NCBI GenBank assembly: GCA_943789275.1
Contig: CALSTM010000003.1
Span: forward strand, 570,001-602,000
Source of the DNA: Candidatus Poseidoniaceae archaeon
Lineage (GTDB): Archaea > Thermoplasmatota > Poseidoniia > Poseidoniales > Poseidoniaceae
Reading direction: 5' to 3'
Length of the DNA: 32,000 nucleotides
Made by a program: the position numbers and the translations under genes. Below are positions 1-28,451 of this stretch, in pieces; position 1 is the first letter of the stretch; the number at the start of each line of letters is the position of its first letter. The notes beneath the pieces were generated by a model that made no database searches, was not told the DNA's origin, and worked only from the letters and a program-made list of their open reading frames with translations.

Positions 1-1
1 G

Positions 2-823
2 GCCGTTGCTGTGTCTGCTGGAGGTTCCCACATCTGCGCCATCCTTGACAACGGCGACCTGAAGTGTTGGGGGCGGGACAATTACGGACAGTTGGGCGAC
101 GGTGGAAGCAACACGGACACCAACGCACCTTCATCCACCGCCATCAACCTCGGCACGGGCCGAACGGCCGTTGCGGTGGCTGCTGGATCTTACCATGAGT
201 TTACCTGTGCCATCCTTGACAACGGCGACCTGAAGTGTTGGGGGCGGGACACTTCGGGACAGTTGGGCGATGGAGCAGGCACCAATAACCTCAACGCACC
301 TTCTTCCACGCCGATTGACCTTGGCAGTGGCCGAACGGCCGTTGCGGTGTCTGCTGGAAGTGCCCACGCCTGCGCCATCCTTGACAACGGTGACCTGAAG
401 TGTTGGGGGTCTAACTCCTTTGGGTCGTTGGGCGATGGAGGAAGCCACGCGTACACCAACGCACCTTCATCCACCGCCATCAACCTCGGCACGGGCCGAA
501 CGGCCGTTGCTGTGTCTGCTGGAAATGGCTTCACCTGCGCCATCCTTGACAACGGTGAGGCGAAGTGTTGGGGGTATGACTACAGTGGACAGTTGGGCGA
601 TGGAGGAAGCAACACGAACACCAACGCACCTTCATCCACCGCCATCAACCTCGGCACGGGCCGAACGGCCGTTGCGGTGGCTGGTGGAAATGGCCACAAC
701 TGCGCCATCCTTGACAACGGTGAGGCGAAGTGTTGGGGGTATAACTCCCAAGGAGAGTTGGGCGACGGTGGAAGCAACACCAATCAGGGTTCACCGGTAG
801 CTGTTTCTGGCAGCAACACCTGG
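2..823 (+). repeat. RCC1-type beta-propeller blades (5 in window) of protein A
   Basis: ~159-bp periodic units carry CAILDNG..KCWG and TGRTAVAV[AS]AG. The minus- and plus-strand shadow ORFs between 131 and 857 reflect this periodicity. Confidence 0.85.
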
Positions 824-2815
824 GATGCCACGACCACCATCGCCACTTGGGAAACACACCCTGCTTTACCAGCGGGCATGAGCATCTCAGGCGGTACGAT
901 CAGCGGCACACCTTCGGTCTATGCGACCAATCAAACCTACACGATTTACGCCAATAAGAGCGGTTATTCAACCACGCACGAGTTGTACTTTAGCGTGGAT
1001 ACAGACAATGCGCATACCGTCGTTGAAAATCAGACGATTGATCCAATTGGCTTCCATCCTCCGTTCTGGAACGGTACGACCGCTTGGACGGTCTCACCTG
1101 CCTTGCCGGGCAACCTCTCCATCAACGGAAGCACCGGTGAAATCACCGGAACGGTCAACGGAACGCTGACCAACACCACCTACACGGTGACAGCGACGCA
1201 CAGTGGCTCAGGCGCTGCAACGGAAACCTTCTCGTTCAACTTGCAGAGTCTTGCTGATTACGATGGCGACGGTCTTGCCAACGACTTGCCAAGCGATTAC
1301 GATGCAGCTGAAGGGCCAACCTCTGGTCTTGTTGCTGACGATGATGACGACGGCGACGGCCTTGCCGACAGCATCGAAACGAATACTGGAACCTACATTG
1401 ACGCCAGCGATACGGGCACCGACCCATTGAATCCAGACACCGACGGTGATGGTATCTGCGACGGACCAAATGCAGTACCTCCAATCTGTGTTGCAGGTCC
1501 AGACATGGACCCGAACGGTGAGAGTTTCCCACCAACCTTGGTGGCCATCAACAACACCGCCATCTCAACGCTTGCTCCATACTTGGCAGTAAGCGGTGGA
1601 ACGTACGAAATTGCACCCGACTTGCCAGCAACCCTGTCACTTGACCCCGCAACCGGTGAAATCACCGGTACACCGACCGAAACCATCACCAACACGACCT
1701 TCACCATGTGGTCGAACAACTCCAACGGTGATTCTCTCTCGTGGAACTTCACCATTGAAATCTTGGAAGACAGCGACGGCGACGGAATGCCAAACGAACT
1801 TCCGGGCGATTATGATCCAACCAACCCTGATGCACCTGGCCTTGTGGAAGACACTGACGATGATAACGACGGACTTTCCGACACCAACGAATCAGAGATT
1901 GGCACCAATCCACTCAACCCAGATACAGACGGCGACGGTATGTGCGACGGACCTGTGGCTTCGCCACCAGACTGCGTTGCTGGCCCTGACGCCTTCCCGC
2001 TTGACCCTGCTGGCGACACCGATACAGACGGCGACGGCAACCCAGACACGCTTAACCCTCCTTCAAACAGCGACCCTGCTTTGGTTGAGGACTTGGACGA
2101 CGACGGTGACGGCTTGGACGACGTGAACGAAACGGGCACGGGCATCTACAACAGCAGCACTGACACGGGAACCGACCCGCTTGACCCAGACACCGATAAC
2201 GACGGTATTTGCGACGGACCGAACGCTGTCTATGACGTTCAAGGCAACCTCATCTGCGTTGCTGGACCTGACGATACACCGTTTGGCGAAGCTGCGGAAG
2301 GGGTTGTGTATGGCTTGAACAACACACAGTTCTCAAGTCTCGTACCGCCTTACCAATTGCCTGGTGCAACATGGAGTATTTCTCCAGACTTGCCTGATGG
2401 ACTGAGCATTGACCCAGTCAGCGGAATCATCAGCGGAACACCGACTGAAGTGATGGACAACATCACCTTCACCATTTTCGGCATCGCTCTGATACCTCAT
2501 CCATCACCTTTGATTTCAACTTGCAAATTTTGGAAGACACTGACCGCGACGGTCTGCCCAACGACCTGCCCGACGATTATCCGGTTGACGGAGAACTCAT
2601 CGAAGACTTGGACGACGACGGTGATGGTGCTTCTGACCTCTCAGAAACCGGTACTGGAATCTACAACGGAACGGATGACATGGGTACAGACCCGCTTGAT
2701 CCTGATACGGATGATGACGGAATCTGTGACGGTCCAAACGATGTTCTGCCGCAATGTATCGGTGGTCCTGACTCCAATCCGTTTGGTACTGGACCGCTCG
2801 GGCCTACAGTTTTAG
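2..2815 (+). CDS. Surface protein A, fragment 1 of 3 (5' end off-window): RCC1 beta-propeller blades, then alternating He_PIG-type Ig-like domains and TSP3 Ca-binding repeats
   Basis: Frame 2 is open to the window start (AVAVSAGGSHICAILDNGDLKCWG...). Five ~53-aa blades carry CAILDNG[DE].KCWG....GQLGDG (RCC1 signature). Ig-like motifs LP.G[LM]S....G.I[ST]GTP and many D.D.DG..D loops follow. Family-consistent translation ends at ~2487. Positions 2488-2815 in this frame (ALIPHPSPLISTCKFWKTL...) look like out-of-frame read-through. Confidence 0.85.
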   Translation, partial: AVAVSAGGSHICAILDNGDLKCWGRDNYGQLGDGGSNTDTNAPSSTAINLGTGRTAVAVAAGSYHEFTCAILDNGDLKCWGRDTSGQLGDGAGTNNLNAPSSTPIDLGSGRTAVAVSAGSAHACAILDNGDLKCWGSNSFGSLGDGGSHAYTNAPSSTAINLGTGRTAVAVSAGNGFTCAILDNGEAKCWGYDYSGQLGDGGSNTNTNAPSSTAINLGTGRTAVAVAGGNGHNCAILDNGEAKCWGYNSQGELGDGGSNTNQGSPVAVSGSNTWDATTTIATWETHPALPAGMSISGGTISGTPSVYATNQTYTIYANKSGYSTTHELYFSVDTDNAHTVVENQTIDPIGFHPPFWNGTTAWTVSPALPGNLSINGSTGEITGTVNGTLTNTTYTVTATHSGSGAATETFSFNLQSLADYDGDGLANDLPSDYDAAEGPTSGLVADDDDDGDGLADSIETNTGTYIDASDTGTDPLNPDTDGDGICDGPNAVPPICVAGPDMDPNGESFPPTLVAINNTAISTLAPYLAVSGGTYEIAPDLPATLSLDPATGEITGTPTETITNTTFTMWSNNSNGDSLSWNFTIEILEDSDGDGMPNELPGDYDPTNPDAPGLVEDTDDDNDGLSDTNESEIGTNPLNPDTDGDGMCDGPVASPPDCVAGPDAFPLDPAGDTDTDGDGNPDTLNPPSNSDPALVEDLDDDGDGLDDVNETGTGIYNSSTDTGTDPLDPDTDNDGICDGPNAVYDVQGNLICVAGPDDTPFGEAAEGVVYGLNNTQFSSLVPPYQLPGATWSISPDLPDGLSIDPVSGIISGTPTEVMDNITFTIFGIALIPHPSPLISTCKFWKTLTATVCPTTCPTIIRLTENSSKTWTTTVMVLLTSQKPVLESTTERMTWVQTRLILIRMMTESVTVQTMFCRNVSVVLTPIRLVLDRSGLQF

Positions 2816-5091
2816 TCAACAATTCGATGACTGCACCAATTCCTCCAGCAAACCCAGTACCAGGTGCAGTTTGGGAAGTCTCTCCTGACTTGCCGGATGG
2901 CCTCGTGCTCGACCCAGCAACGGGAATCATTACCGGAACGCCAACACAATCAATGGACAACACGACGTTCACCATGTGGGCCAACACAACCACGCCAAGC
3001 ATGTCGATTATCTCGACGTTCTGGCTTGAAGTGCTTGAGGACAGCGACGGTGATGGAATGCCAGACGCACTTCCAGACGATTATCCTGACATGAATCCAC
3101 CTTACGATTTGGTCGAAGATTTGGACGACGATAACGACGGTATGTCGGATGACGATGAAGCAATCATTGGAACCGACCCTACCAATCCTGATTCAGACGG
3201 CGACGGATTCTGTGATGGTAACGGAACGGGCGATGGCGACTGCTATGCAGGACCTGACTCCTCACCGCTTGACCCAGCACTGCCAGCCAATACTGATGGT
3301 GATGCGTATCCTGATGACGACCCAGACGGTGAAGGCGGCTTAGTTGCTGATACCGATGACGACAACGATGGTTTCCTTGATACCCGTGAATTGGAGTGTC
3401 TATCTGACTCTCTCGATGCGACAGACGTGCCTGAAGACCTTGATGGTGACGGGGAATGTGATGCATTAGACGACGATATTGACGGTGACGGATTGATCAA
3501 CGATCTTGAATCCAATACTGGTGTTTACAATCCACCTTTCGAAACAGGAACAGACCCTCGTAATGCTGACACCGATGGTGACGGCGTTTGCGATGGCGAC
3601 GAATCTCCACCGAACAACAATTGCACTGCAGGACACGATGCGTTCCCGCTTGACCCTGCAGCTCACGCAGACACTGACGGTGACGGGTTCCCTGACGAAC
3701 TGTTCGGAAATTCAACCAGCACTCCTCCACTCACGCTCGATATGGACGATGACAACGATGGATGGACCGACGTTGATGAAACGGCGTGCGGCACAGACAG
3801 TTTGGATGACGCAAGTACACCCGTTGATACCGATGTAGACGGCATTTGTGATGCACTGGATGACCTGTTGGATCTACCGTTTACGATGACATACCCAACC
3901 CAAAATCTAACCATTGGAGTTGGCGAAGAAATGATCCCTTTCCTGCCGAATATTACCGGTTTAGGAGAGGTTGCAACGTGGGAAATCAGTGGAGAATTGC
4001 CCGATGGCCTCACCTTTGGTTGGAGTCCTGCTCGAGATGCCTTGTTGGATGGAAGTATTCGCGGAACACCACTGAATGCCTCGGAAATGAGCAACCTCAC
4101 CATCTGGGCGAACAATTCTGCTTACAGTCAATCGTTCGAAGTGTCTCTCACCGTCAACGATGTTGTTTCAGATGACAGTGATGGTGATGCTGAATCCAGT
4201 CTCAAGTGGGGTTACATCTGTTGTCCTTTACTGCTGTTGATTTTGCTTGCAGTGTTCTTAATCTTCATGCCAAATGAAAAGACCGTTTTGAAAGATGCAG
4301 AGCCTGAACATACGGTTGTGAAACCAAGAACAAAGAAAGGCAGTGGAACAGAAGATGATCCGTTTGTGTTGAAATCGATTAAGGGTGTAAAACCTGGAAG
4401 TCTTGTTTACAGCAAAGAAATCATCACAATCGATGAGATTTCCCCGAACCTTTTGATTAAGTGTGAAGACCGTAACAGTTCTTCGAAGTTCCAAAGCATG
4501 AAATTGTCAAATGAACTGCTTGAAACAGACAGTGAAGAGGATGAACCAGCACTGATTTCTACAGCAATTAATGCGACTGAACACGGTGTCATTCGTTTCA
4601 AGTTGGTCTACGATGACAGCGAATTGCCAACATTTGCAGGCCAGACCGTCAAGGCCTTGGTTAAGGTTGGTAACAATTCTGTCTACTTCCTTTGGGAAAT
4701 TGAAATCAAGAAAGATTCAGATTGGCAGAAAAAGATGGCTGCGAGTGATGCAGAATCCGACGATGAATCTGGAAACGCTGTCGTCGAGTACGTCACTGAA
4801 AAAGCGACGGTTGCCAAAGAGAAAACGCACTCCGTTCTTGATATGGATGGCGACGGTAAACTCACCGTTGAAGACGTTAAGCGCGGTGCTACTCAAATGG
4901 CAGAAAACGCCAAGAAGGGCGTTGAAATCGTCAAAGAGAAGGTTGTTGCTGCTAAGGTTGCGACCGACGCCAAGCTTGCCGAAAGAAAAGCTGCTAAGGA
5001 AACCAAGGCTGCCAAGCAAGCCAAGGCCCAAGCCGATGCAGATGCCAAGGAAGCCAAAGCTGCAGAACAGAAGGCTGCGCAAGGAGGCTGA
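2521..5091 (+). CDS. Surface protein A, fragment 2 of 3: Ig-like/TSP3 modules, membrane-proximal Ig-like domain, TM helix, cytoplasmic juxtamembrane domain, start of Ala/Lys/Glu-rich helix
   Basis: Frame 1 is open from 2449. Homology resumes at 2488 (SDTSSITFDFNLQILEDTDRDG), matching the paralogous junctions SLSWNFTIEILEDSDGDG and IISTFWLEVLEDSDGDG. The fragment is collinear with gene B from its TSP3 block through the TM and the AEPEHT...GSGT..DPFV segment. The ORF-track start TTG 2521 is only the first start-like codon. Confidence 0.85.
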   Translation: MQILEDTDRDGLPNDLPDDYPVDGELIEDLDDDGDGASDLSETGTGIYNGTDDMGTDPLDPDTDDDGICDGPNDVLPQCIGGPDSNPFGTGPLGPTVLVNNSMTAPIPPANPVPGAVWEVSPDLPDGLVLDPATGIITGTPTQSMDNTTFTMWANTTTPSMSIISTFWLEVLEDSDGDGMPDALPDDYPDMNPPYDLVEDLDDDNDGMSDDDEAIIGTDPTNPDSDGDGFCDGNGTGDGDCYAGPDSSPLDPALPANTDGDAYPDDDPDGEGGLVADTDDDNDGFLDTRELECLSDSLDATDVPEDLDGDGECDALDDDIDGDGLINDLESNTGVYNPPFETGTDPRNADTDGDGVCDGDESPPNNNCTAGHDAFPLDPAAHADTDGDGFPDELFGNSTSTPPLTLDMDDDNDGWTDVDETACGTDSLDDASTPVDTDVDGICDALDDLLDLPFTMTYPTQNLTIGVGEEMIPFLPNITGLGEVATWEISGELPDGLTFGWSPARDALLDGSIRGTPLNASEMSNLTIWANNSAYSQSFEVSLTVNDVVSDDSDGDAESSLKWGYICCPLLLLILLAVFLIFMPNEKTVLKDAEPEHTVVKPRTKKGSGTEDDPFVLKSIKGVKPGSLVYSKEIITIDEISPNLLIKCEDRNSSSKFQSMKLSNELLETDSEEDEPALISTAINATEHGVIRFKLVYDDSELPTFAGQTVKALVKVGNNSVYFLWEIEIKKDSDWQKKMAASDAESDDESGNAVVEYVTEKATVAKEKTHSVLDMDGDGKLTVEDVKRGATQMAENAKKGVEIVKEKVVAAKVATDAKLAERKAAKETKAAKQAKAQADADAKEAKAAEQKAAQGG
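3040..3883 (+). other. Long TSP3-like Asp-rich Ca-binding block of protein A
   Basis: Repeated D.D.DG.[PC]D / DTDDDNDG loops with conserved Cys (DGICDG, DGVCDG). It is collinear with 23524-24335 in gene B, including ...ACGTDSLDDASTPVDTD.D.ICD.LD.LLDLPF. Confidence 0.7.
4216..4269 (+). other. Transmembrane helix of protein A
   Basis: ICCPLLLLILLAVFLIFM is preceded by an acidic stalk (DDSDGDAESS) and followed by Lys-rich sequence. Confidence 0.8.
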
Positions 5092-5470
5092 AGCAAGCCA
5101 AGGCTGCTGAAGAGAAGGCTGCTAAGGAAGCCAAAGCACAAGCTGATGCTGACGCAAAGGCTGCCAAGCAAGCCAAGGCTGCTGAAGAGAAGGCTGAGAA
5201 GGAAGCTGAGAAGCAAGCCAAGGCCCAAGCCGATGCAGATGCCAAGCAAGCCAAGGCTGCTGAAGAGAAGGCTGAGAAGGAAGCTGAGAAGCAAGCCAAG
5301 GCCCAAGCCGATGCAGATGCCAAGGAAGCCAAAGCACAAGCTGATGCTGACGCAAAGGCTGCTAAGGAAGCCAAGGCTGCTGAAGAGAAGGCGGCTAAGG
5401 AAGCCAAGGCTGCTGAAGAGAAGGCTGAGAAGGAAGCTGCTGCCAAGAAGAAGGCTGAGAAGAAACCAGC
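4948..5470 (+). repeat. Ala/Lys/Glu/Gln-rich low-complexity helical region of protein A (contains frameshift 2 and a perfect 78-bp tandem duplication)
   Basis: AKQAKAQADADAKEAKAAE... composition. Units 5169-5246 and 5247-5324 are identical. Confidence 0.85.
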
Positions 5471-6086
5471 ATCGAAGGAAGTCAAGAAAAAGGAAGAACT
5501 CAAGCGGGTTCAAGAACGCTCGGAAACGATTGACTTTTCGATTCTTGGAACAGCCAAGGCAAGCGACAAAGACGACCTTCAAGTCATGAAGGGTATTGGC
5601 CCATTCATTGAAGAAAAGCTCAATGCGCTCGGAATCTACACTTACCTACAAGTCTCGAAGATGACCTCAAAACTTGAAACAGACGTCAACGAGGCCATCG
5701 AGTTCTTCCCTGGCCGTGTCAAGCGAGACCAATGGGTCAACCAGGCGAAGATTTTGCTCGGTGAGGACGTGAAACTCGATGAGAAGGCACTCAAGCAAGC
5801 CGAAGACCTCGAACGAATCTCCAAGAAGGCTGAGTCAATTGACTTCGCTACGCTTGGTGTTGCAAGCGCTTCCGAGAAGGACTCGCTGCAGACAATCAAA
5901 GGGATTGGTCCGTTTATTGAAGAGAAGTTGAATGCGCTTGGTATTTACACCTTCGAACAAGTTGGAAACATGACGCCTGATATTGAAGAACAGGTCAACA
6001 AGGCCATCGAGTTCTTCCCAGGCCGTGTCAAGCGAGACCAATGGGCGAAGCAGTCAAGGGCTCTTCACGAACAAACTACTAAGTGA
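5091..6086 (+). CDS. Surface protein A, fragment 3 of 3: rest of Ala/Lys/Glu-rich helix plus two C-terminal helix-hairpin-helix modules
   Basis: Frame 0 has no ATG/GTG/TTG before 5586, which explains ORF track 5586..6086. From 5091 it translates as KQAKAAEEKAAKEAKAQADADAK..., continuous with fragment 2 and collinear with the gene B C-terminus. Stop TGA is at 6084-6086. Confidence 0.8.
   Translation, partial: KQAKAAEEKAAKEAKAQADADAKAAKQAKAAEEKAEKEAEKQAKAQADADAKQAKAAEEKAEKEAEKQAKAQADADAKEAKAQADADAKAAKEAKAAEEKAAKEAKAAEEKAEKEAAAKKKAEKKPASKEVKKKEELKRVQERSETIDFSILGTAKASDKDDLQVMKGIGPFIEEKLNALGIYTYLQVSKMTSKLETDVNEAIEFFPGRVKRDQWVNQAKILLGEDVKLDEKALKQAEDLERISKKAESIDFATLGVASASEKDSLQTIKGIGPFIEEKLNALGIYTFEQVGNMTPDIEEQVNKAIEFFPGRVKRDQWAKQSRALHEQTTK
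5571..6068 (+). other. Two tandem helix-hairpin-helix modules (COG3743/NuoE C-terminal-extension-like) of protein A
   Basis: The pattern L[QK].[IM]KGIGPFIEEKLNALGIYT..Q......[DE]....AIEFFPGRVKRDQW..Q[AS] occurs twice. It matches my memory of the L..I.G[IV]GP..E..L...GI..F.Q[IV]A...........F.GR[IV].R[DE].W..QA motif family. Confidence 0.55.
5589..6053 (+). repeat. 465-bp tract 100% identical to 26149-26613 (copy 1)
   Basis: Line-by-line comparison at offset 20,560 bp found no mismatch. Flanks diverge immediately: 5576, 5579 and 5588 upstream, and 6054 onward downstream. Confidence 0.95.
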
Positions 6087-6141: not shown

Positions 6142-9100
6142 ATGCACGGTGCGGATGCTTTGCTCCCTCTAACATTAAAAGCGAACAAGACTGCCTCGAA
6201 TGGCTCGAACTCGCTAAAATCGGTGATTTTGTCGCTCTTGATGATTTCAATGTCCCTCTCAGCGGGAATTGTTCAATCAAGTCCTTCCCACGAGACTCTG
6301 GAAAAGTCTTCGAGCGAACTGAGCTTGTCGACAATTTCTGACTCCGTCTCATCAGGCCTTGCTGAACTGAGCAGCTTGTTGGGGTTGGTTGAAGATCAGC
6401 CAGCCGAACTTGAACAATCCAATGCTGATGCGATGTTGACTGGGGGTCGCTCCGTTCCTTCAGTATCGTATTCTCCCAGTACGTTCAACCTCGTTCGTAA
6501 CACAGCAATGAGCGACCAAACGCCCACCTCATCTGGGGGCACGGTAACTTCTTGGTCTATTTCGCCGACTCTTCCTTCAGGTATTTCGATTTCATCATCG
6601 ACGGGTACAATCTCCGGAACGCCGACTGTAATCAGCGCATCGACCTCCTACACTGTGACAGCAACCAACGGTGCCGGCAGCGATACTGCAACCATCACCA
6701 TCTCCGTTACCGATGCTTTGCCGGTTATCGTTTACTCTCCGAACACATTCACCGAGGCTGTGGGCACTGCAATGACGTCGGTCACACCGACATCGTACGC
6801 AGGTACGGTCGATTCTTACTCGATTTCTCCGTCGCTACCTCCGGGTTTGTCCTTGGATACCAGCACGGGTACCGTTAGCGGAACGCCAACTGCCGTCTCT
6901 TCATCAACATCCTACACCGTAACGGCGACCAACTCCGCAGGTACAGACACCGCCTCCCTCACTATTGTCGTCAATGACGTTGCACCAACTTCGATCAGTT
7001 ACTCTCCGAACACATTCACGTTAACGAAGGGGACATTGATTTCTACGGTCACGCCGACCTCAAGTGGAGGGGCTGTCACATCATGGACCATTTCACCGTC
7101 TCTTCCAGCAGGACTTTCTTTGGCCTCTTCCGATGGTGCAATCAGCGGAACACCGACTGAAGTGTCATCGTTACAAACTTACACCGTGACAGGTACGAAC
7201 ACTGGCGGGAGTGCTACTGCAGAGATCACGATTCAAGTCAATGATGTTGCTCCAATCATCGGTTACCCTACGACTTCTTACACCCTGGTCAAGGGTAGTG
7301 CCATGTCGAGCCCTGCAACACCTACCTCAACCGGTGGTACAGTTGTTACTTGGGATGTATCCCCTACCCTTCCATCAGGCCTCACTATTTCCAGTTCCAC
7401 TGGTGTTATTTCAGGAACACCCACAACCGTTACTTCTTCTGCAGTCTACACCGTTACTGCGACCAACACCGGAGGCACAGATACAGCAACTGTGACCATT
7501 CAAGTCAATGATGTACAGCCGCTTATCGGTTATTCTCCGAGCTCTATTTTGTTGTCAAAGGGTACGACGATGTCGCCTGCCAGTCCAACGTTGTACGGCC
7601 AAGGACAAGTAGACTCATGGTCCGTCTCACCTTCTCTCCCCGCTGGAATAAGTCTTGACTCATCAACTGGTATCATCACCGGGATGCCTACCACTATCAG
7701 TCCCTCCGCTACGTACACCATCACTGCAACGAACACCGGTGGTACCGATACTGCAACCCTCACCATTACCGTCAATGATGCTACACCTTCAATTGCATTC
7801 TCTACGAATTCATTTACCCTGACCAAAGGCACTGCGATGACAACTACTACTCCATCATCAACCGGAGGAGCAGTTGTCACATGGTCTATCTCTCCATCGC
7901 TCTCGGCGGGGCTCTCTTTTGATTCTTCGACAGGAACACTTTCTGGAACACCAACCGTGGTTTCAGCCTCTACAGTCTACACGATTACTGCAACCAACAC
8001 TGGCGGCAGTGATTCGGCTACCGTAACCATCGTTGTCAACGATATTGCTCCATCCGCTATAGCTTACAGCCCAAGTTCCTTCACCCTGACCAAGGATTCG
8101 GCTATGACTGCTGCCACACCTACCTCGAGCGGAGGTACAGTCGTCTCTTGGGCTGTTAGTCCATCGCTCCCAGCAGGTCTCTTATTGGATACCTCAACAG
8201 GTGAGATTTCTGGAACACCTACAGCCGTGACCTCTTCTGCCACCTACACCGTTACTGCAACCAACACCGGTGGCGATGCTACAACCACCGTGACCATCGT
8301 TGTCAACGACGTGATTCCATCTTCAGTTTCGTACAGCGACAGTCCGTTTACTTTGACGAAAGATTCCCTCATGACGGCTTCTACGCCAACATACAGCGGA
8401 GGGACAGTCATCTCTTGGGCTGTTTCTCCATCGCTCCCAGCAGGTCTTGCCTTCTCTACCTCGACCGGTGAAATTTCAGGTACTCCATCGGCCGTCACTT
8501 CTTCGGCAACCTATACCATTACGGCAACCAACACCGGTGGTGACGCTACGACCACCGTGACCATCGTTGTCAACGACATTATTCCATCTTCAGTTTCGTA
8601 CAGTGGCAGTCCGTTTACCTTGACGAAAGATTCCTTGATGACGGCATCTACACCAACTTACAGCGGCGGAACAGTCATCTCTTGGGCAGTTAATCCTTCG
8701 CTCCCAGCAGGTCTTGTTCTCGATACTTCTACCGGAGAAATTTCCGGAACGCCTACAGCCGTGACCTCTTCTGCAACCTACACCATTACAGCCTCCAACA
8801 CCGGTGGCAGCGCTACGACCACCGTGACCATCGTTGTCAACGACATCATCCCATCATCGGTTACTTACAGCCCGAATTCATTCACCCTGACCAAAGACAG
8901 CAGCATGACTGCTACTACACCAACCGCAAGTGGCGGTCCAGTCGTATCTTGGGCTGTTTCTCCATCGCTACCTGCTGGCATAGTCATCGATTCATCCACC
9001 GGTGAGATCAGCGGAACCCCAACAGCTGTGACCTCTTCGGCAACCTACACCATTACAGCCACCAACACCGGTGGTAGCGCTACGACCACTGTTACCATCG

Positions 9101-12100
9101 TTGTCAACGACATTATTCCATCATCGGTTGCCTACAGCCCGAATTCATTCACCCTGACTAAAGACAGCAGCATGACTGCAACTACGCCTACTTCGAGCGG
9201 CGGTCCAGTCGTTACTTGGACAGTCTCTCCAACGCTACCTGCTGGCATAGTCATCGATTCATCCACCGGTGAGATTTCTGGAACCCCTACAGCCGTCACT
9301 TCTTCGGCAACCTACACCATTACGGCCACCAACACCGGTGGTGACGCTACGACTACTGTTACCATCGTTGTCAACGACATCATCCCATCATCAGTTTCGT
9401 ACAGTGACAGTCCGTTTACCTTGACGAAGGGTACAACCATGACGGCCTCAACCCCGACCTCGAGTGGCGGTACCGTCATTTCCTGGGCTGTTTCTCCATC
9501 GCTCCCAGCAGGTCTTGCCTTCTCTACCTCGACCGGTGAAATTTCAGGTACTCCATCGGCCGTCACTTCTTCGGCAACCTATACCATTACGGCAACCAAC
9601 ACCGGTGGTGACGCTACGACAACCGTGACCATCGTTGTTAACGACGTGATTCCGTCTTCAGTCTCTTACAGCGGAAGTCCGTTCACATTGACCAAAGACT
9701 CGGCTATGACCGCAGCCACACCTACTTCCAGCGGCGGTACCGTTGTATCGTGGGCAGTCTCTCCTTCACTCCCTTCGGGCTTGGTTATCGATTCATCAAC
9801 CGGTGTGATCAGCGGAACACCTACAGCAATCACTGCTTCAGCAACCTATACCATTACAGCCACCAACACCGGTGGAGACGCTACGACAACCGTGACCATC
9901 GTTGTCAACGACATTATTCCATCTTCAGTTTCGTACAGTGGCAGTCCGTTTACCTTGACGAAGGGCACAACCATGACGGCTTCTACGCCTACATACAGCG
10001 GCGGAACAGTCATCTCTTGGGCAGTTAATCCTTCGCTCCCAGCAGGTCTTGTTCTCGATACTTCTACCGGTGAAATTTCAGGTACTCCATCGGCCGTCAC
10101 TTCTTCGGCAACCTACACCATTACTGCAACAAACACCGGTGGAGACGCTACGACCACCGTGACCATCGTTGTCAACGACATCATCCCATCATCGGTTACT
10201 TACAGCCCGAATTCATTCACCTTGACCAAAGACAGCAGCATGACTGCTACTACGCCTACTTCGAGCGGCGGTCCAGTCGTATCTTGGGCTGTTTCTCCAT
10301 CGCTCCCAGCAGGTCTTGTTCTCGATACTTCAACCGGTGAGATTTCTGGAACACCTACAGCCGTCGCCTCTTCTGCGACTTACACCATTACGGCCACCAA
10401 CACCGGTGGTGACGCTACGACCACTGTTACCATCGTTGTCAACGACATCATCCCATCATCAGTTTCGTACAGTGACAGTCCGTTTACCTTGACGAAGGGT
10501 ACAACCATGACGGCCTCAACCCCGACCTCGAGTGGCGGTACCGTCATTTCCTGGGCTGTTTCTCCATCGCTCCCAGCAGGTCTTGCCTTCTCTACCTCGA
10601 CCGGTGAAATTTCAGGTACTCCATCGGCCGTCACTTCTTCGGCAACCTATACCATTACGGCAACCAACACCGGTGGTGACGCTACGACCACCGTGACCAT
10701 CGTTGTTAACGACGTGATTCCGTCTTCAGTCTCTTACAGCGGAAGTCCGTTCACATTGACCAAAGACTCGGCTATGACCGCAGCCACACCTACTTCCAGC
10801 GGCGGTACCGTTGTATCGTGGGCAGTCTCTCCTTCACTCCCTGCGGGCTTGGTTATCGATTCATCAACCGGTGTGATCAGCGGAACCCCAACAGCTGTTA
10901 CCTCTTCTGCGACTTACACCGTTACTGCAACCAACACCGGTGGAAGTTCGACTGCAACTGTCACCATCGTTGTCAACGATGTGATTCCATCTTCAGTTTC
11001 GTACAGCGACAGTCCGTTTACTTTGACGAAAGATTCCCTCATGACGGCTTCTACGCCAACATACAGCGGAGGGACAGTCATCTCTTGGGCTGTTTCTCCA
11101 TCGCTCCCAGCAGGTCTTGCCTTCTCTACCTCGACCGGTGAAATTTCAGGTACTCCATCGGCCGTCACTTCTTCGGCAACCTATACCATTACTGCAACAA
11201 ACACCGGTGGAGACGCTACGACTACCGTGACCATCGTTGTCAACGACATCATCCCATCATCGGTTACTTACAGCCCGAATTCATTCACCTTGACCAAAGA
11301 CTCCGTTATGTCTGCAACAACACCAACCTACAACGGCGGTACAGTCGTCTCTTGGGCAGTTAATCCATCGCTCCCTGCAGGTCTTGCTTTCTCTACTTCA
11401 ACCGGTGAAATTTCTGGAACACCTACATCCGTGACCTCTTCTGCGACCTACACCGTTACCGCAACCAACACCGGTGGTAGTGCGACCACCACCGTGACCA
11501 TCGTTGTCAACGACATCATCCCATCATCGGTTACTTACAGCCCGAATTCATTCACCTTAACCAAAGACTCCGTTATGTCTGCAACAACACCAACCTACAA
11601 CGGCGGTACAGTCGTCTCTTGGGCAGTTAATCCATCGCTCCCAGCAGGTCTTGCTTTCTCTACTTCAACCGGTGAAATTTCTGGAACACCTACATCCGTG
11701 ACCTCTTCTGCGACCTACACCGTTACCGCAACCAACACCGGTGGTAGTGCGACCACCACCGTGACCATCGTTGTCAACGACATCATCCCATCATCGGTTA
11801 CTTACAGCCCGAATTCATTCACCTTAACCAAAGACTCCGTTATGTCTGCATCGACACCAACCTACAACGGCGGTACAGTCATTTCCTGGGCTGTTTCTCC
11901 ATCGCTCCCAGCAGGTCTTGCCTTCTCGACCTCAACCGGTGAGATTTCAGGAACGCCTACAGCCGTGACCTCTTCTGCTACCTACACGGTGACAGCAACC
12001 AACACCGGTGGTGATGCTACGACCACCGTGACCATCGTTGTCAACGACATTATTCCGTCATCGGTTGCCTACAGCCCGAATTCATTCACCCTGACCAAAG

Positions 12101-15100
12101 ACAGCAGCATGACTGCCACTACACCAACCGCAAGTGGCGGTCCCGTCGTTACTTGGACAGTCTCTCCAACGCTACCTGCTGGCATAGTCATCGATTCATC
12201 CACCGGTGAACTTTCTGGTACGCCTACTGCAGTCACCTCCTCTGCAACCTACACCATCACCGCAACCAACACCGGTGGCAGCGCTACGACCACCGTGACC
12301 ATCGTTGTCAACGACATCATCCCATCTTCAGTTTCGTACAGTGACAGTCCGTTTACCTTGACGAAAGATTCCTTGATGACGGCATCTACACCAACTTACA
12401 GCGGTGGAACGGTCATCTCTTGGGCTATTGATTCAACGCTTCCAGCAGGTCTTGCTTTCTCGACTTCGACCGGTGAAATTTCAGGTACTCCATCGGCCGT
12501 CACTTCTTCGGCAACCTACACTATTACAGCCACCAACACCGGTGGCAGCGCTACGACCACCGTGACCATCGTTGTCAACGACATCATCCCATCATCGGTT
12601 GCCTACAGCCCGAATTCATTCACCCTGACCAAAGACAGCAGCATGACTGCTACTACACCAACCGCAAGTGGCGGTCCCGTCGTTACTTGGACAGTCTCTC
12701 CAACGCTACCTGCTGGCATAGTCATCGATTCATCGACCGGTGAGATCAGCGGAACCCCAACAGCTGTGACCTCTTCTGCGACTTACACCGTTACCGCAAC
12801 CAACACCGGTGGTAGCGCTACGACCACTGTTACCATCGTTGTCAACGACATTATTCCATCATCGGTTGCCTACAGCCCGAATTCATTCACCCTGACTAAA
12901 GACAGCAGCATGACTGCAACTACGCCTACTTCGAGCGGCGGTCCAGTCGTATCTTGGGCTGTTTCTCCATCGCTACCTGCTGGCATAGTCATCGATTCAT
13001 CCACCGGTGAGATTTCTGGAACCCCTACAGCCGTCACTTCTTCTGCGACTTACACCATTACGGCAACCAACACCGGTGGTGACGCTACGACAACCGTGAC
13101 CATCGTTGTTAACGACGTGATTCCGTCTTCAGTCTCTTACAGCGGAAGTCCGTTCACATTGACCAAAGACTCGGCTATGACCGCAGCCACACCTACTTCG
13201 AGCGGCGGTACGGTTGTATCGTGGGCAGTCTCTCCTTCACTCCCTGCGGGCTTGGTTATCGATTCATCAACCGGTGTGATCAGCGGAACGCCTACAGCAA
13301 TCACCGCTTCAGCAACCTACACCATTACCGCAACCAACACCGGTGGCGATGCTACGACAACCGTGATGATTGTCGTCAATGATGTTGCTCCATCATCCAT
13401 TACCTACAGTCCAAGTTCTCTCTCACTGAACAAAGATTTGACGATGACTGCAGCCACTCCTACTTCGAGTGGAGGGGCAGTCGTCTCTTGGACGATATCT
13501 CCAACGCTCCCAGCAGGTCTGTCCTTCGATGCTTCAACGGGTACAATTTCTGGAACCCCGACAACAATCACATCCTCTGCCGCATACACTGTAACGGCCA
13601 CCAACACTGGTGGAAGTGCTACTGCAACAATCACCATTGTGGTCAATGATGCGGCCCCTTCTTCCATCACTTACAACCCAAGTTCTTTCACTTTAACGAA
13701 AGGCACCGCTATGACCTCAGTTACCCCGACTTCAAGCGGTGGAACTGTTACAACTTGGTCTGTTTCTCCGCCCCTTCCAAGCGGCATTAGCATCGATTCA
13801 TCGACTGGCCAAATCAGTGGAACTCCAACTGCAGTTGTCTCTTCAGCAGCATATACTGTCACGGCAACCAATGCCGGCGGAAGTGATACTGCAACCGTAA
13901 CCATCGTTGTCAACGATGTGGCACCATCTTCGATCTTCTACAGCGGAAACCCGTTCACCCTGACCAAAGATTCTACCATGCCATCAGCCACACCTTCCTC
14001 TTTTGGAGGCACGGTCATCTCTTGGTCCATATCACCAACTCTACCTGCTGGTCTGGTAATTGACGCCTCAACTGGTGTCATTTCAGGAACACCTACTGCA
14101 GTCACATCATCTGCTACCTACACGGTGACTGCAACCAATTCTGGAGGTAGTGATTCGACCACTATTACCGTTCAGGTGAACGATGTCATCCCTTCATCTG
14201 TTTCATACAGCGGAAGTCCATTCACACTAACTAAAGACGCTGCAATGGCTCCAGCAGCACCAACTGCGAGCGGCGGCACAGTCATCACTTGGGCAGTATC
14301 CCCATCGCTTCCAGCAGGCCTCTCCTTGAGCACCTCGACCGGTGTAATCTCCGGTACACCAACCGCAATCACTTCCTCTGCTACCTACACGGTGACAGCA
14401 ACCAACAGCGGTGGTAGTGCGACTGCTACGATCACCGTTGTCGTCAACGATGTCATCCCTTCTTCGATTACGTACAGTCCAAGTTCGTTCACGCTGACCA
14501 AGGATTCTGCAATGACCGCAGTCACACCTTCTTCAAACGGTGGAACTGTTGAGACGTGGTCCGTCTCTCCATCACTGCCAGCAGGTCTTGCCTTCTCTAC
14601 CTCGACCGGTGAAATCAGCGGAACGCCGACAGCAGTCACTTCCTCTGCGAGCTATACCGTTACAGCAACCAACACCGGTGGCAGTGCAACCACTACCGTG
14701 ACAGTTGTTGTTAACGACATCATTCCATCTTCAGTTGCCTACAGTCCAAGTTCGTTCACGCTGACCAAGGATTCTGCGATGACTACGGCAACTCCGACTT
14801 CGAACGGTGGCACAGTAATTTCCTGGGCGATTTCACCTGCAGTTCCAGCAGGTCTGGCTTTCTCGACTTCAACCGGTGCTATTTCTGGAACACCAACTGA
14901 GATTACTGCATCTGCAACATACACAGTTACAGCAACCAACACCGGTGGTAGCGCAACGACCACTGTGGTCATTGTGGTCAACGATGTAGCACCGTCTTCG
15001 GTCTTCTACAGCGGAAGCCCGTTCACCTTGACCAAAAATTCTGCAATGACATCGGCTACACCTTCCGCCTTCGGTGGTACTGTCGTCTCTTGGTCGGTCT

Positions 15101-18100
15101 CACCATCGCTGCCTGCTGGTCTATCTTTTGATACATCATCCGGTACGATTTCAGGCACCCCGGCAGCGGTAACAGCATCAGCAACATACACAGTGACTGC
15201 AACCAACACCGGTGGTAGCGATTCTGCGACTATCACGATTCAGGTCAACGATGTGGCCCCTTCCTCTGTATCCTACAGCGGAAGTCCATTCACCTTGACC
15301 AAGGATACGACTATGGCTCCATCTGCACCAACCGTGAGCGGTGGCACAGTCATCACTTGGGCAGTATCCCCATCGCTTCCAGCAGGACTCTCCCTGAGCA
15401 CCTCTACTGGTGTAATTTCTGGAACGCCAACAGCGATCACTGCATCAGCATCCTATACCGTGACTGCAACCAACACCGGAGGTAGTACTACTGCTACAAT
15501 CACTGTTATCGTCAACGATGTTGCTCCTTCATCGGTCACCTACAGCCCGAGTTCGCTCACTTTGACCAAAGACCAAGCAATGTCCGCTGCAACGCCTACT
15601 TCAAGCGGTGGTGCTGTCGTCACATGGGCAATTACTCCATCTCTTCCGACAGGACTTGCCTTCTCGACATCAACAGGTACGATTTCTGGAACACCAACTG
15701 CGTTATCTTCTTCGGCGACATATACCGTGACTGCAACCAACACCGGTGGTAGTGCAACCGCCACATTGACGATTGAGGTAAACATCGCTGCTCCAACTTC
15801 AGTTACCTACAGCCCGAGTTCCTTTACACTCACCAAAGATGTCGCCATGACAACGGTCACGCCGACTGCCAGTGGTGGAACCATCACATCGTGGTCTATT
15901 TCTCCAACGCTTCCAGCAGGTCTGTCCTTTGACACTTCGAACGGTGCAGTGAGTGGTACGCCAACAGCTGTTTCTTCCTCTGCAACCTACACCGTGACAG
16001 CAACCAACGCAGGTGGCAGCGGAACCGCAACACTGACCTTCCAGGTCAACGATGTAGCACCGTCTTCTATTGCCTACAGTCCAAGTTCAATCTCGTTAAG
16101 CAAAGACTCGCCTATGACTGCAGTTACCCCAACTGCGAGTGGCGGTGCAGTCGTTTCTTGGTCGATCTCACCAACACTCCCGGCAGGTCTGTCCTTCGAT
16201 ACTTCAACGGGTACAATTTCTGGAACCCCAACAGCAATCACTGCTTCAGCAATTTATACCGTTATTGCAACCAACTCCGGAGGCAGTGCTTCGTCTACAG
16301 TGACCATCGTGGTCAACGATGCAGCACCATCTTCAGTATCGTACAGTCCGAGTTCCTTTACCTTGACAATTAACAACGCCATGACATCGGTTACTCCAAC
16401 TGCGAGCGGTGGAACCGTCACTTCTTGGACGATATCCCCTACGCTCTCATCGGGTCTCTCTTTCGACACATCAACTGGAACCATCAGTGGAACTCCAACA
16501 GCGGTGTCCTCGTCCACGGTTTACACTATCACGGCTACGAACGCCGGTGGAAGCGGTACTGCTACCGTAACGATTCAAGTGAACGATGTAGCTCCTTCGG
16601 GAATTACTTACACTCCAAATTCGTTCACACTTGCGAAAGATTCTGCTATGACAACAGTTACTCCAACTTCGACCGGCGGTACTGTCGTATCATGGTCTGT
16701 CTCACCAACGCTTCCTGCCGGTTTGTCTCTTGACACATCCACTGGAGCCATTTCAGGTACTCCAACGGCAATTTCTTCCAGTGCGACATACACAGTCACT
16801 GCGACCAACAGCGGTGGAAGCGCAACGGCAACAGTGACGATTCAAGTCACGGTAGCTGCGCCTTCTTCAATCGCCTACAGTACGAGTTCATTCACCTTGA
16901 CGAAAGATGTCGCAATAACAGCCGTCACACCTACGTCAAGCGGTGGAACGGTTTCTTCATGGTCGATTTCTCCAACACTTCCTGCAGGTCTTGCTTTCTC
17001 GACGACAGACGGAACAGTTTCAGGAACACCGACCGCGATTTCCGCATTAACCTCATACACAGTGACTGCCACCAATCAAGGTGGTAGCAGTACTGCCACA
17101 TTGACGGTTCAAGTGAACGATGTTGCACCATCTTCTATTGCCTACAGTCCAAGTTTCCTCACATTGACAAAGGACACTCCAATGGTGACTGCAACGCCAA
17201 CATCGAGCGGAGGAACTGTTACATCATGGTCGATTTCGGCAACACTTCCTGCGGGCCTTTCACTGGATGCATCAACCGGTGGAATTTCTGGAACGCCAAC
17301 AGCAACCTCTTCTGCGGTAACATACACGGTAACAGCGACCAACACAGGAGGCAGTTCTACCACTACAGTTACGATTTTGGTTAACGATGCGGCCCCAACC
17401 TCAGTTTCCTACAGTCCAAGTTCATCGATCTTGACAAAGGGTAACGCTATGACCTCCGTCACTCCGACATCGAGCGGCGGTACCGTTACTTCATGGGCAA
17501 TTACTCCATCCCTTCCGGCAGGTTTGTCTTTCTCGACTTCGACCGGTGCGATTGGTGGAACGCCTCAAGCAGTATCCGCCTCGACAACATATACCGTTAC
17601 CGCATCCAACGCCGGTGGCAGCGATACGACAACCGTAACAATCCAGGTCAATGATGTCGCTCCATACTCAGTTTCGTACAGCGGTACACCGTTTACTCTG
17701 ACCAAAGGTTCTGCAATGACCACCGCCACGCCATCTGCAAGCGGTGGTGCTGTTGATTCATGGTCGGTTACACCTCAGCTCCCGGCTGGTCTAACTTTGG
17801 ACACCTCGACCGGTACGATTTCCGGTACGCCTGCAGCAGTAACTTCCTCTGCCAGCTACACCGTCACCGCAACCAACACCGGTGGTAGTTCTACTGCAAG
17901 TGTAACCATTGTTGTCAACGATGTCATTCCTTCATCAATTACGTACAGTGGAAATCCGTTTACTCTGACCAAGGGCTCTCTGATGACTGCGGACACTCCA
18001 ACATCGAGCGGTGGCACTGTTGTTTCATGGTCCGTTTCACCAACGTTGCCTGCTGGACTTTCCTTTGACACCTCGACTGGTACTATTTCTGGAACGCCAA

Positions 18101-21100
18101 ACGCAATCACTGCATCTGCTACATACACCGTTACCGCAACCAATACTGGCGGTAGTGCAACCGCTACGCTGACGATTATTGTCAACGACGCACCACCATC
18201 TTCAGTAGCCTACAGCAGCAGTCCATTCACTTTGACGAAAGATGTTGCAATGACAACGGCCACTCCAACTTCGAGTGGAGGTAGTGTTGACTCATGGTCG
18301 ATTACACCAACCCTCCCTGCTGGCTTATCGTTCGATACTTCGACTGGAGCCATCTCCGGAACCCCAACAGCAATCACATCCTCTGCCACCTACACTGTAA
18401 CTGCTACTAATGAAGGCGGTAGTGCAACCGCTACGGTGACGATTATCGTCAACGATGCCGCCCCATCGTCACTCACATACAATCCAAGTTCATTCAACTT
18501 AGCGAAAGGTACTGCAATGACCACCGTTACTCCAACATCGAGCGGTGGAGCGATCACCTCCTGGACGATTTCATCAACGCTCCCAGCAGGTCTTTCCTTC
18601 GACACTTCGACTGGAGCAATTTCCGGCACACCAACAGCAATTACTGCTTATGCTTCTTACACCATTACTGCAAGCAACACGGGCGGTAGTGATACTGCGA
18701 CAGTGACGATTATTGTCAACGATGCAGCACCGTCTTCCATCACGTACAGTGGTAGTCCGTTTTCCTTGACCAAGGGAGTTGCCATGACCTCGGCTACACC
18801 AACAGCAAGCGGTGGAGCCGTTACTTTCTGGTCGATTTCCCCAACACTTCCAACCGGTCTGTCTTTCGATACTTCGAATGGAACGATCAGCGGAACACCG
18901 GCTGACGTCTCTTCTTCTGCAACCTACACGGTTACAGCAACCAACGCCGGTGGCAGCGATACAGCATCAGTATCGATTCAAGTGAACGATATAGCACCGT
19001 CTTCAGTCGCTTACAGTCCAAGTTTCCTCACATTGACAAAGGATACTCCAATGACGACCTCAACACCGACCTCGAGCGGCGGTACCGTCGTTTCATGGTC
19101 TATCTCCCCATCGCTCACAGCAGGACTTTCCATTGACAGTTCAACTGGAGCGATTTCTGGAACGCCAACCGTAACATCTACCGCAACCACATACACGGTT
19201 ACAGCGACCAATTCCGGTGGCGGTGCTACGACAACAGTAACAATTCTTGTCAACGATGCCGCTCCTTCATCTGTGACATACAGTCCAAGTTCTCACACCT
19301 TGACAAAGGATGTAGCCATGACAACCGTAACCCCAACCGCAAGTGGAGGCGCCGTTACTTCTTGGACAATCTCTCCATCACTCCCAGCAGGTTTGAGTAT
19401 CGATTCATCAACTGGGGCTATCAGTGGAACGCCAACTGCTGTCACTCCTACCACGATCTTCACCGTTTCTGCAACCAATGCCGGTGGCACTGGTACGACA
19501 ACAGTTACGATCCAGGTCAACGATGTAGCGCCTTACGCTGTATCCTACACCGGTACTCCTTTCACTCTGACCAAGGGGTCTGCCATGACAACTACGACTC
19601 CGACCGCTAGCGGCGGTGCTGTTGATTCTTGGTCGATAACACCTGCTCTTCCATCGGGCCTATCCATGGATACGTCAACAGGTGCGCTTTCCGGAACCCC
19701 AATGGTGGTCATTTCTTCCACGACTTATACAATTACCGCCACGAACACCGGCGGTAGTGTTTCCACAACGGTAACTTTTGTTGTCAATGATGTCACTCCT
19801 TCATCAATCGCATACAGCGGTAATCCGTTTACCCTGACCAAAGACATCGCCATGACTGCATCGACGCCTACTTCCAGTGGTGGCGATGTTGTAACTTGGC
19901 AAGTTTCGCCAAGTCTTCCAACAGGTCTCATCTTTGACACTTCGACCGGTGAAATTTCCGGAACGCCGACTGTGATCACGTCTTCTGCAGCATATACCGT
20001 GACAGCCACCAATACGGGTGGTAGTGCAACAACAACAGTGACCATCGTTGTTAACGATGCAGCACCTTCGTCTGTTGCCTTCAGTGGAAACCCATTCTCA
20101 TTGACGAAAGATGTCACCATGACGACAGCTACTCCAACCGCCAGCGGCGGTGCAATCACCTCCTGGTCGGTTACTCCTACGCTCCCAGCAGGCTTGTCTT
20201 TTGACACTTCAACAGGGGCGATTTCCGGAACGCCGACAGCAATCACATCTTCTGCCGCTTACACGGTAACTGCAGTCAACACAGGCGGTAGCGATTCGGT
20301 CACAATTACGATTGAAGTGAACGATGTTATACCTTCATCAATTACCTACAATCCAACTTCCTTCACTTTAATCAAAGACTCGGCAATGACATCAGTGACT
20401 CCAACATCAAGTGGCGGTGCTGTCACTTCATGGACGGTATCTCCATCGCTCCCGGCAGGTCTCTCTCTTGATTCTTCGACAGGAGAAATTTCAGGAACGC
20501 CAACGGCGATTACGGCTTACGGAACGTACACAATTACTGCAAGCAATACGGGTGGCAGTGCAACGGCATCGGTCACGATTCTGGTCAACGACGCAGCTCC
20601 ATCTTCGCTTGCGTACAGTGCCAGTCCGTTCACGTTGACGAAAGGCTCCGCAATGACATCCGCTACACCAACCTTCAGCGGTGGAACTCCAACATTCTGG
20701 GCGATCTCCCCAACGCTCCCAGCTGGTCTTGCGTTCGACACATCAACAGGTACTATATCCGGAACACCAACCGCAGTATCTTCCTCTGCAACATATACGC
20801 TAACTGCGACCAACGCCGGTGGCAGTGACAGTACAACGTTTACCCTACAAGTTAACGACATACCTCCATCGTCGGTATCCTACAGTCAGAGTTTCTTCTC
20901 TTTGGCAAACGGTACGACGATGACTGATGAAACACCATCTACAACAGGTGGAACCGTCACCTCTTGGACGATTTCTCCTGCGCTTCCAGCAGGTCTAACC
21001 TTGTCAGCCACAACAGGTGTCATCTCAGGTACGCCTACGACGACATCCTCTGCAACAACTTACACCGTAACAGCGACCAATTCCGGTGGTGGCGCTACGA

Positions 21101-26921: not shown

Positions 26922-27602
26922 ATGGGTGGATTAAAAGCGAGCGGTGATATGCGGTATTTTCAGATACGTATTCTGCATGAGCAAGCCCAGCATTTACCAG
27001 GGAATATCCTTACGAAGTTCTTCAGCAAAGTGGAAATGGTTACTGGAACTGGGGTTGTGGACTCCATCCCAACATGTATTCTCAGGGTAGAGCATGATGG
27101 CGTTGACATTAGGAAACTCAAAGATCAACTCAAGGGGAGTTTAATCATCGATAAAATCCTCCAAGAAGGGGATGATTATGCCTACTTGAAAGCGAAAACT
27201 CCTGGACCGATTCAACTCATTATTGGGGCTGAAGAGGAAGCATGGATTATGCCACCATCGTATCTCTCCAGAGAAAGTGGTTTCTTTATGACCATACACG
27301 GCACGCCGAAAGGGCTGAAGAGAATCAAAGACAAATTAGAGGCATTGATTCCTGAAAAAATGGATATGCGAATTTCAAAACTGATTATCGGCGATTGGAT
27401 GTCTGCTCCAAAACTGCCAAATAAGCGTTATTTAGCTATTAAAACTGCAGTTGATATGGGTTATTACAGCACTCCTCGAAGGTGCAATCAAAGCGATATT
27501 GCAGAAGTTTTGGGTGTTAAACAAGGAACCGTTGCAGAACATTTACACTTCGCTGAAAGCATAATCATCAATTCTTGGTCCGAGCAAACATCGAGTTCAT
27601 AG
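26922..27602 (+). CDS. HTH_10 (bacterio-opsin-activator-type) helix-turn-helix transcriptional regulator
   Basis: The C-terminal RYLAIKTAVDMGYYSTPRRCNQSDIAEVLGVKQGTVAEHLHFAESIII fits the HTH_10 pattern (GY[FY]..PR....[DE][IL]A..LG[IV]...[TV].EHL..AE) typical of Euryarchaeota. An AGGTGAT Shine-Dalgarno-like motif at 26910-26916 lies 5 nt before ATG 26922. Alternative starts are GTG 26913 (ORF track) and ATG 26949 (MRYFQIRIL...). Confidence 0.75.
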   Translation: MGGLKASGDMRYFQIRILHEQAQHLPGNILTKFFSKVEMVTGTGVVDSIPTCILRVEHDGVDIRKLKDQLKGSLIIDKILQEGDDYAYLKAKTPGPIQLIIGAEEEAWIMPPSYLSRESGFFMTIHGTPKGLKRIKDKLEALIPEKMDMRISKLIIGDWMSAPKLPNKRYLAIKTAVDMGYYSTPRRCNQSDIAEVLGVKQGTVAEHLHFAESIIINSWSEQTSSS

Positions 27603-28208: not shown

Positions 28209-28451
28209 GCTGATGGCAATGAAATACACGGTATAGTTATTTTGTTGTGTTGCCGATTTAATGATTGGTCTGTTCGTTTTTCGGTTTCTTTGAGATTGAC
28301 TAAACCGTCGTAGATTCAGCTCTTCTTGAACGGGGTTGAAGAGCCACTTGTGCGAAATTATAGGGTCAACTATGATAGTCAGTTCGTCGTTGGTTGGCGC
28401 ATGAATGATGCCGATGGTATAGGTCACAGCCGTGTATTTGGACTAAAATCC

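Follow-up and report, generated by a model that had tools for sequence, protein, structure and literature searches.

Ectopic gene conversion between duplicated prokaryotic genes is known from the archaeal thermosome (chaperonin) paralogues and from tufA/tufB in Salmonella, and a pre-conversion allele segregating alongside the converted one is rarely seen. Direct-repeat-mediated deletion is likewise well known, as are variable islands with giant surface-protein genes in marine microbes, and cassette-based antigenic variation is represented by pilE/pilS, vlsE and msp2. The locus analyzed here lies in a 32,000-nt stretch of contig CALSTM010000003.1 (the window), in which the ends of two neighboring giant genes, A and B, carry an identical tract. 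It resembles the thermosome and tufA/tufB cases in showing a non-reciprocal, homology-dependent copy with synonymous identity within diverged sequence, which ends where homology ends. It differs from them in that only the conserved, presumably cytoplasmic tail module of otherwise very different giant genes appears to have been converted, and in that the pre-conversion allele is still segregating in the same population. As in direct-repeat deletion and variable islands, one hybrid copy is left between collinear flanks that are >99.8% identical, and a large surface-protein gene is present or absent among co-occurring strains. Unlike the usual direct-repeat deletion, the repeat is domain coding sequence of neighboring genes and not an insertion sequence or intergenic repeat; thus deletion gives an in-frame hybrid gene. 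Conversion among paralogous surface-protein sequences is shared with pilE/pilS, vlsE and msp2, but no silent cassettes and no expression site are present here, A and B are both complete genes, each with its own start, and it is the conserved intracellular end that is converted rather than the variable region exposed outside. There is no sign of a programmed process of high frequency, and the locus lacks the hallmarks of antigenic cassettes. A literature search on gene conversion in Poseidoniales found nothing specific. The locus is a new, well-documented instance of a known process.

The close relatives found in a genome contig search were all Poseidoniaceae or Poseidoniales MAGs, and the host is a Candidatus Poseidoniaceae (MGIIa, Marine Group IIa) archaeon. 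Gene A (1–6086, forward strand, 5' end cut by the window) was delineated from ORFs, translations and Pfam matches (RCC1, He_PIG, TSP3_bac). It encodes RCC1 repeats, He_PIG/TSP3 blocks, a transmembrane (TM) helix, a Lys/Ala-rich coil and two helix-hairpin-helix (HhH) modules. The TM helix, WGYICCPLLLLILLAVFLIF, is predicted from the sequence at 4207–4266 (forward strand), and the part of the gene 3' of it would encode a cytoplasmic region, which includes the Lys/Ala/Glu-rich repeat of the coil at 4972–5480 (forward strand). Gene B (6142–26643, forward strand) is a single ORF of 6,833 aa according to ORF, translation and Pfam analysis. It consists of a signal/TM-like N-terminus, approximately 56 tandem 267-nt He_PIG units, a TSP3 block, a TM helix (24673–24726), a Lys/Ala coil (25348–25830), an insert of approximately 80 aa (TLGKATTS...VMVKDDLQVI; 25906–26148, forward strand) and the tail. 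The insert is missing in A and marks the B-type tail context in other species. An exact look-up of the 6,833-aa protein in a protein collection gave no match. Most pairs of He_PIG units at 6772–22000 were 60–85% identical, while some non-adjacent units reached 92–97% (for example, 9259–9558 against 10327–10626), which suggests recent intragenic duplication or conversion within gene B.

Gene B is followed by an HTH_10 (bat-type) regulator gene (26922–27602, forward strand), which served as the downstream anchor for recovering the B-tail context elsewhere, and by a LysE-family transporter gene (27597–28427, reverse strand). The start of a third giant surface-protein gene, gene C (RCC1, He_PIG), occupies 28350–32000 on the forward strand; it is frame-broken at approximately 28922 and hypervariable between strains. 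Its N-terminal part showed approximately 116 differences in 28500–29100 against an NCBI MAG (L098 2654–7315), and the HTH/LysE region of the same MAG differed from the window by only approximately 1%.

The tails of both A and B consist of two HhH modules of approximately 70 aa joined by a linker. In gene A, module 1 begins at 5589 and is followed by the linker and then by module 2 from 5898 (forward strand). Each module matched, over part of the model, the C-terminal extension domain of NuoE, S2, L21 and PhaH (E 6.6e-33 to 1.4e-13), with NF009040 matched at E 6.6e-33 over model positions 301–386 of 400. Matches to PDB entries 9wqv_a (E 8.7e-12) and 8yy9_O (E 4.2e-11) were also obtained, and the Pfam Cdd1 model (Cdd1/DUF4332-like) scored 26 bits against a cut-off of 25.5. 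In alphaproteobacteria, this domain of approximately 70 aa (NF009040, NF008966, NF008916, NF045508) sits at the C-terminus of NuoE, of extended S2 and L21, and of the phasin PhaH, and each tail module aligns with it; here it is tandem-duplicated and placed on what is probably the cytoplasmic end of archaeal giant surface proteins. The tail protein sequence is kept across Poseidoniaceae with 75–98% amino acid identity to the window tail, and because of this family-wide conservation the tail is probably functional. Weaker tail homologues with 45–53% amino acid identity could also be seen in Phaeodactylibacter MAGs (L087, L088).

Direct comparison within the window revealed that 5589–6053 and 26149–26613 (both forward strand) match at 465 of 465 positions, exactly as the original prediction had stated. 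This 465-nt sequence is referred to as R, with copy 1 in its native gene A context and copy 2 in gene B. The BLASTN match extends to 5567–6053 against 26127–26613 with four mismatches, all in the first 22 nt. Three of them fall within the 13 nt immediately 5' of the tract, and the corresponding boundary zone of gene A (5567–5588, against 26127–26148 in gene B; forward strand) ends in an ATG at 5586–5588. Further 5' of this zone, the genes are unalignable because B carries its insert of approximately 80 aa there. On the 3' side, A ends in ten codons, SRALHEQTTK, plus stop (6054–6086, forward strand), with related A-type ends in sister strains P0004, P0006 and P0015, and B ends in nine codons, ARELHSNKK, plus stop (26614–26643, forward strand); the sequences are unrelated beyond these points. 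The abrupt edges that had been noted on both sides are thus real, and identity stops abruptly because the alignable homology itself ends there.

The prediction that the remaining collinear parts of A and B are diverged also held. In a codon alignment of the collinear tails, pS was 0.67–0.95 (saturated) in 12 flanking windows of 50 codons and 0 inside the tract, and nucleotide identity in aligned codons outside the tract was 44–68%. Given a divergence of 89/340 for the native B tail described below, the probability of observing no difference over 340 nt is approximately 1.5e-45. The identity of the two tracts is real and far beyond chance.

The locus could be recovered in 24 stretches by exact match to two anchors, the HTH protein and a 166-aa ORF formed by the tract and the A end. 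These stretches came from many ENA assemblies with Flye-style contig names and one NCBI MAG, were 97.6–99.96% identical to the window, and represent alleles known from consensus assemblies throughout. Exact R in the A context was present in five of them (L001–L004, L099), R with 1–3 SNPs in the A context in eight more (L090–L097), and exact R in the B context in three (L006, L011, L012). Two exact copies occur on one contig in ERZ10646226 contig_2642, 20,560 nt apart, and again in ERZ10646689 contig_18441, 20,561 nt apart. The SNPs in the gene A tails were at tract positions 393 (T>A, Asp to Glu), 411 (C>T) and 246 (G>A); 393T and 411C were present in 6/6 B-context tails.

A repeat-induced misassembly, in which only one of the two contexts would be real, had been named as the alternative to gene conversion. 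Many short-read MAG contigs of related species do begin or stop at the tail, and some contigs of approximately 21 kb stop inside copy 2, which speaks for a misassembly. However, each of the four junctions was seen in at least four independent assemblies, and both contexts with their unique flanks in more than ten. They co-occur on single contigs at constant spacing, and even a chimeric join at a repeat presupposes two real copies. A misassembly is therefore highly improbable. Both loci persist in their own contexts with the donor unchanged, since the order of upstream A, R and downstream A and the order of upstream B, R and downstream B are found on the same contigs. Two scans of JGI metagenomes, with the junction of upstream B and the tract and with the junction of the tract and downstream B, found no independent contigs of this population. 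Three of the recovered contigs (L004, L092 and L094; 21.2–24.0 kb) begin in the Lys/Ala repeat of gene A and stop 150–270 nt into copy 2. Their shape is that of assembly-graph branches with the gene B unit, which suggests that forms with and without B occur together in the same samples.

An unconverted allele of gene B could be identified in L014 (ERZ10646675 contig_7157). For 9,227 nt upstream of the tail, its gene B matches the window at 100% identity, free of substitutions and indels, and the identity is again 100% over at least 400 nt downstream of the tail. The tail itself (native tail, Bn) differs from R at 89 sites, all of them at tract positions 12–351, and positions 352–465 are identical. 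At the codon level, 51 codons differ only synonymously and 18 with an amino acid change. Such a cluster of differences within otherwise identical sequence is the signature of recombination and not of mutation, and the tails of A and B in L014 are presumably diverged within one genome. In window coordinates, the 89 sites span 26160–26499 (forward strand), which is the minimal converted segment, and the 114 nt at 26500–26613 (forward strand) are common to R and Bn on sequence comparison; they are a shared tract of older date or else were copied as the 3' part of that conversion event. The tract had been proposed to cover exactly the two HhH modules. Identity does span both modules, but conversion can be demonstrated only for tract positions 12–351, which cover module 1 and the linker and reach into the start of module 2.

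The direction of transfer was assessed with 54 full-length tails from other Poseidoniaceae species, which were classed by the preceding sequence and compared over positions 1–351. The A-type context was defined by '...IDFxxLGTAKAS.KDDLQV' and the B-type context by the insert '...G[VI]TRVFG...V.VKDDLQV'. Among the A-context tails, 20/22 were closer to R (best 91.7%), and among the B-context tails, 29/32 were closer to the native tail of L014 (best 86.6%); over the same positions, R and the native tail share 74.6% identity. According to these affinities, the window gene B is a B-type insert followed by an A-lineage tail, which marks gene A as the donor and gene B as the recipient. Direction at the B locus could also be read in reverse, with the native allele re-imported, and the A-to-B origin of R is not affected by this. 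The unconverted B allele with identical flanks, the A-type affinity of the tract and the recurring contexts strongly support the original prediction of a recent gene-conversion tract as opposed to an assembly join.

The perfect repeat is accompanied by further recombinant forms. Gene B is deleted in at least six assemblies, five with Flye-style names (L005, L007, L009, L010, L013) and the NCBI assembly GCA_028120405.1 (L098), in which upstream A, R and downstream B are joined directly. The missing unit of 20,560 bp corresponds to 6054–26613, or equivalently 5589–26148 (forward strand), and comprises the A end, a 55-nt spacer, gene B and one tract copy. The deletion endpoints lie within the two repeat copies, one copy is left, the flanks are collinear, and the B-specific end is retained. 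The proteins of the deletion type carry either the 393T or the 393A tract variant, so more than one deletion haplotype exists. In addition, L008 has a three-module tail in which Bn[1–353] is fused out of register (309 nt) to R[~45–465], and the A tail on the same contig differs by one SNP. Among the ENA assemblies, B with R is also carried by ERZ10646672, the deletion form by ERZ10646663 and the three-module tail by ERZ10646634. The downstream 5.4 kb contains 13 substitution columns across 11 sequences, which do not sort by allele type; all forms thus segregate in a near-clonal population.

This pattern could also be explained without conversion, if a circular cassette of gene B and one tail had integrated by homologous recombination into the only tail of an A-only, deletion-type genome and thereby duplicated the tail. 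The stretch between the copies is exactly one such cassette, and the presence of gene B at this site varies both among members of the population and among species. Excision from a native-tail genome would yield a cassette with Bn and not R, so that R downstream of the B body would still need a transfer from A to B. Moreover, the A-type ends (xRxLHEQTxK) are diverged among sister strains, which argues that the A-then-B arrangement is old, and integrase or mobile-element genes are absent from the window. Cassette integration is thus distinctly improbable, and gene conversion is preferred.

Comparison of gene A among assemblies revealed that differences cluster at 2290–2520 and in the Lys/Ala repeat at approximately 5000–5590, while the gene is essentially identical elsewhere. 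A point that the original prediction missed is that the window does not contain gene A as a single ORF; the gene runs in frame 2, then in frame 1 from approximately 2521 and in frame 3 from approximately 5082, with frame breaks near 2480–2520 and near 5080. The first break falls in a hot spot (2290–2520, forward strand) where two in-frame alleles of a He_PIG module are known, alpha (L005) and beta (L002), which differed at ~45/~230 nt. Alpha and beta are combined in different ways, with indels, at 2290–2520 of the window and of six other assemblies, and these mosaics give rise to frameshifts in gene A. Besides being a source of artefacts in the consensus, the segment is a second spot of recombination or hypervariability. 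The second break, near 5080, falls in the Lys/Ala/Glu repeat, which is variable in length; between 4972 and 5590, gaps of approximately 40 nt separate the assemblies, and the frame is broken in almost all of them. The gene B counterpart (25348–25830) is identical across all assemblies.

The break near 5080 is not present in L002, L003 and L009, and in L007 and L098 gene A runs uninterrupted in one frame from body to tail. Since the break positions vary by assembly and the frame is continuous in L007 and L098, the frameshifts are consensus artefacts of strain mixtures. The same reading applies to the 166-aa ORF, which is opened by the ATG at 5586 (ATC in B), consists of exactly the tract plus ten codons, and is reported as a separate gene by gene callers because the frame of the repeat is broken in public data. 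One member of this 166-aa cluster is labelled 'predicted flap endonuclease-1-like 5' DNA nuclease' in IMG, which is an annotation only. A stand-alone 166-aa HhH gene starting at the ATG at 5586, with an ATGA overlap with an upstream ORF, was considered and rejected, as the ORF before it is a wrong-frame reading of the Lys/Ala repeat, the correct frame runs on into the tail, and the ORF is uninterrupted in both L007 and L098. Pseudogene status of gene A was rejected as well, since the break positions differ in every assembly and 2290–2520 is a mosaic of clean in-frame alleles.

Strain mixture may also have affected the tail of gene B. The true genomes might comprise only native-tail B and the deletion form, with abundant reads from the deletion strain (upstream A, R, downstream B) piling onto the B tail during polishing and overwriting it with R. 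The assemblies do derive from strain mixtures, as the mosaic and frame-broken consensus at 2290–2520 and in the Lys/Ala repeat of gene A indicates, and deletion-type and B-bearing forms are present in the same sample series. Against such a polishing chimera, the same clean switch occurs in four sequences (the window, L006, L011 and L012), in which B-type bases are kept at 4/4 sites in 26127–26148 and R-type bases follow at 89/89 informative sites; a majority-vote artefact would be expected to flip the four boundary sites too. A mosaic of R and Bn was found nowhere among the recovered tails, and L014 is cleanly native. In addition, the B-bearing strain should dominate the pile-up where gene B lies on the main contig of approximately 0.3–1 Mb. 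An overwritten consensus is accordingly considered unlikely, and conversion of the B tail in the genomes themselves remains the favored reading.

Among related genomes, a search for concerted evolution did not find its pervasive form. Tail pairs within one genome were 74–89% identical, and conversion is thus episodic rather than a general homogenization. The original prediction had further suggested a need for an identical cytoplasmic end-piece on both proteins, which the alleles contradict, as a native B tail with 18 changed codons and a three-module tail coexist with the converted one, and tail pairs within other Poseidoniaceae genomes reach only 74–89% nucleotide identity. Selection holding the two tails identical would agree with the 75–98% amino acid identity of the tail to R across Poseidoniaceae. 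Selection at the protein level is, however, unable to erase synonymous differences, and neither the coexistence of native and three-module tails in one population nor the divergence of within-genome pairs in other species fits it. Such selection is a very improbable cause of the identity, since synonymous identity does not call for any selection.

The order of genes around the tail varies among other species. The tail is followed directly by the HTH gene in L019, L023 and L031 and by a B-like gene in L025, L033, L061 and L070, and three-module tails were also present in L062 and L063. An extra, diverged HhH module right after the juxtamembrane domain could be observed in A-like genes of L015, L019, L020, L021, L025 and L029, approximately 700–900 nt upstream of the main tail and with 46–62% amino acid identity to the window modules; the window gene A is without it. 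The gene end and the sequence after it (AKELHKKK*RSNLPP, then HTH) are identical in the sister species L019 and L027 but follow an A-type tail context in L019 and a B-type insert context in L027, and the pattern of gene B presence and absence seems to occur in this neighboring lineage as well. In L025 (CM001443.1, a 2012 MG-II genome), a partial tail at 14085–14472, 89% identical to window 5475–5861, is embedded in a B-like gene, with inverted He_PIG units after it; this older assembly was probably scrambled here during scaffolding. The typical Poseidoniaceae arrangement of an A-like gene, tail and B-like gene is found in L061 (NHDB01000028.1), which is binned as 'Flavobacteriaceae bacterium TMED48', likely a mis-binning.

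A recent A-to-B gene conversion together with repeat-mediated deletion and unequal exchange, taken as a whole explanation, is assigned a rough probability of 0.82. Genes A and B would be old tandem paralogues, each encoding a giant extracellular protein with a single TM helix as its anchor and a tail that is probably cytoplasmic and consists of a Lys/Ala-rich coil followed by two HhH modules of approximately 70 aa. Homologous recombination would have written the gene A tail over the gene B tail in a non-reciprocal ectopic gene conversion, recently and within the diversity of one near-clonal population. The replaced stretch would measure at least 340 nt (26160–26499) and at most 465 nt (26149–26613), the event having run to where alignable homology ends on either side. 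Either the perfect direct repeat formed in this way or the earlier 114-nt identity may then have served as the substrate for more recombination. In one outcome, the 20,560 bp between the copies would be lost, leaving a hybrid gene with the A body, R and the B end; in the other, an out-of-register exchange between module 2 and module 1 would give the three-module tail. The enzymatic route may be RadA-dependent recombination or SDSA-type repair, and the exchange may have been intrachromosomal or between cells.

A broader role for the HhH-tail coding module is possible, although doubtful at present. It may act as a built-in homology handle shared by tandem giant surface-protein genes, through which whole 20-kb ectodomain genes would be lost, recovered and re-assorted time and again in Poseidoniaceae populations, and through which the number of tail modules would vary. 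The B-present, B-absent and tail-variant alleles would then constitute a standing cell-surface polymorphism, for example under virus or grazer pressure, and possibly among chromosome copies within a cell. The locus is also a warning about public assemblies, in which these repeats and strain mixtures produce consensus sequences with broken frames as well as small ORFs that are spurious. Since the abundant Marine Group II archaea are uncultured, the only way into their recombination biology is through sequence. The locus offers an unusually complete natural record, with the donor, the recipient before and after, the out-of-register product and the deletion product in one near-clonal population, and it indicates that a shared intracellular domain can drive the loss and reshuffling of giant surface-protein genes.
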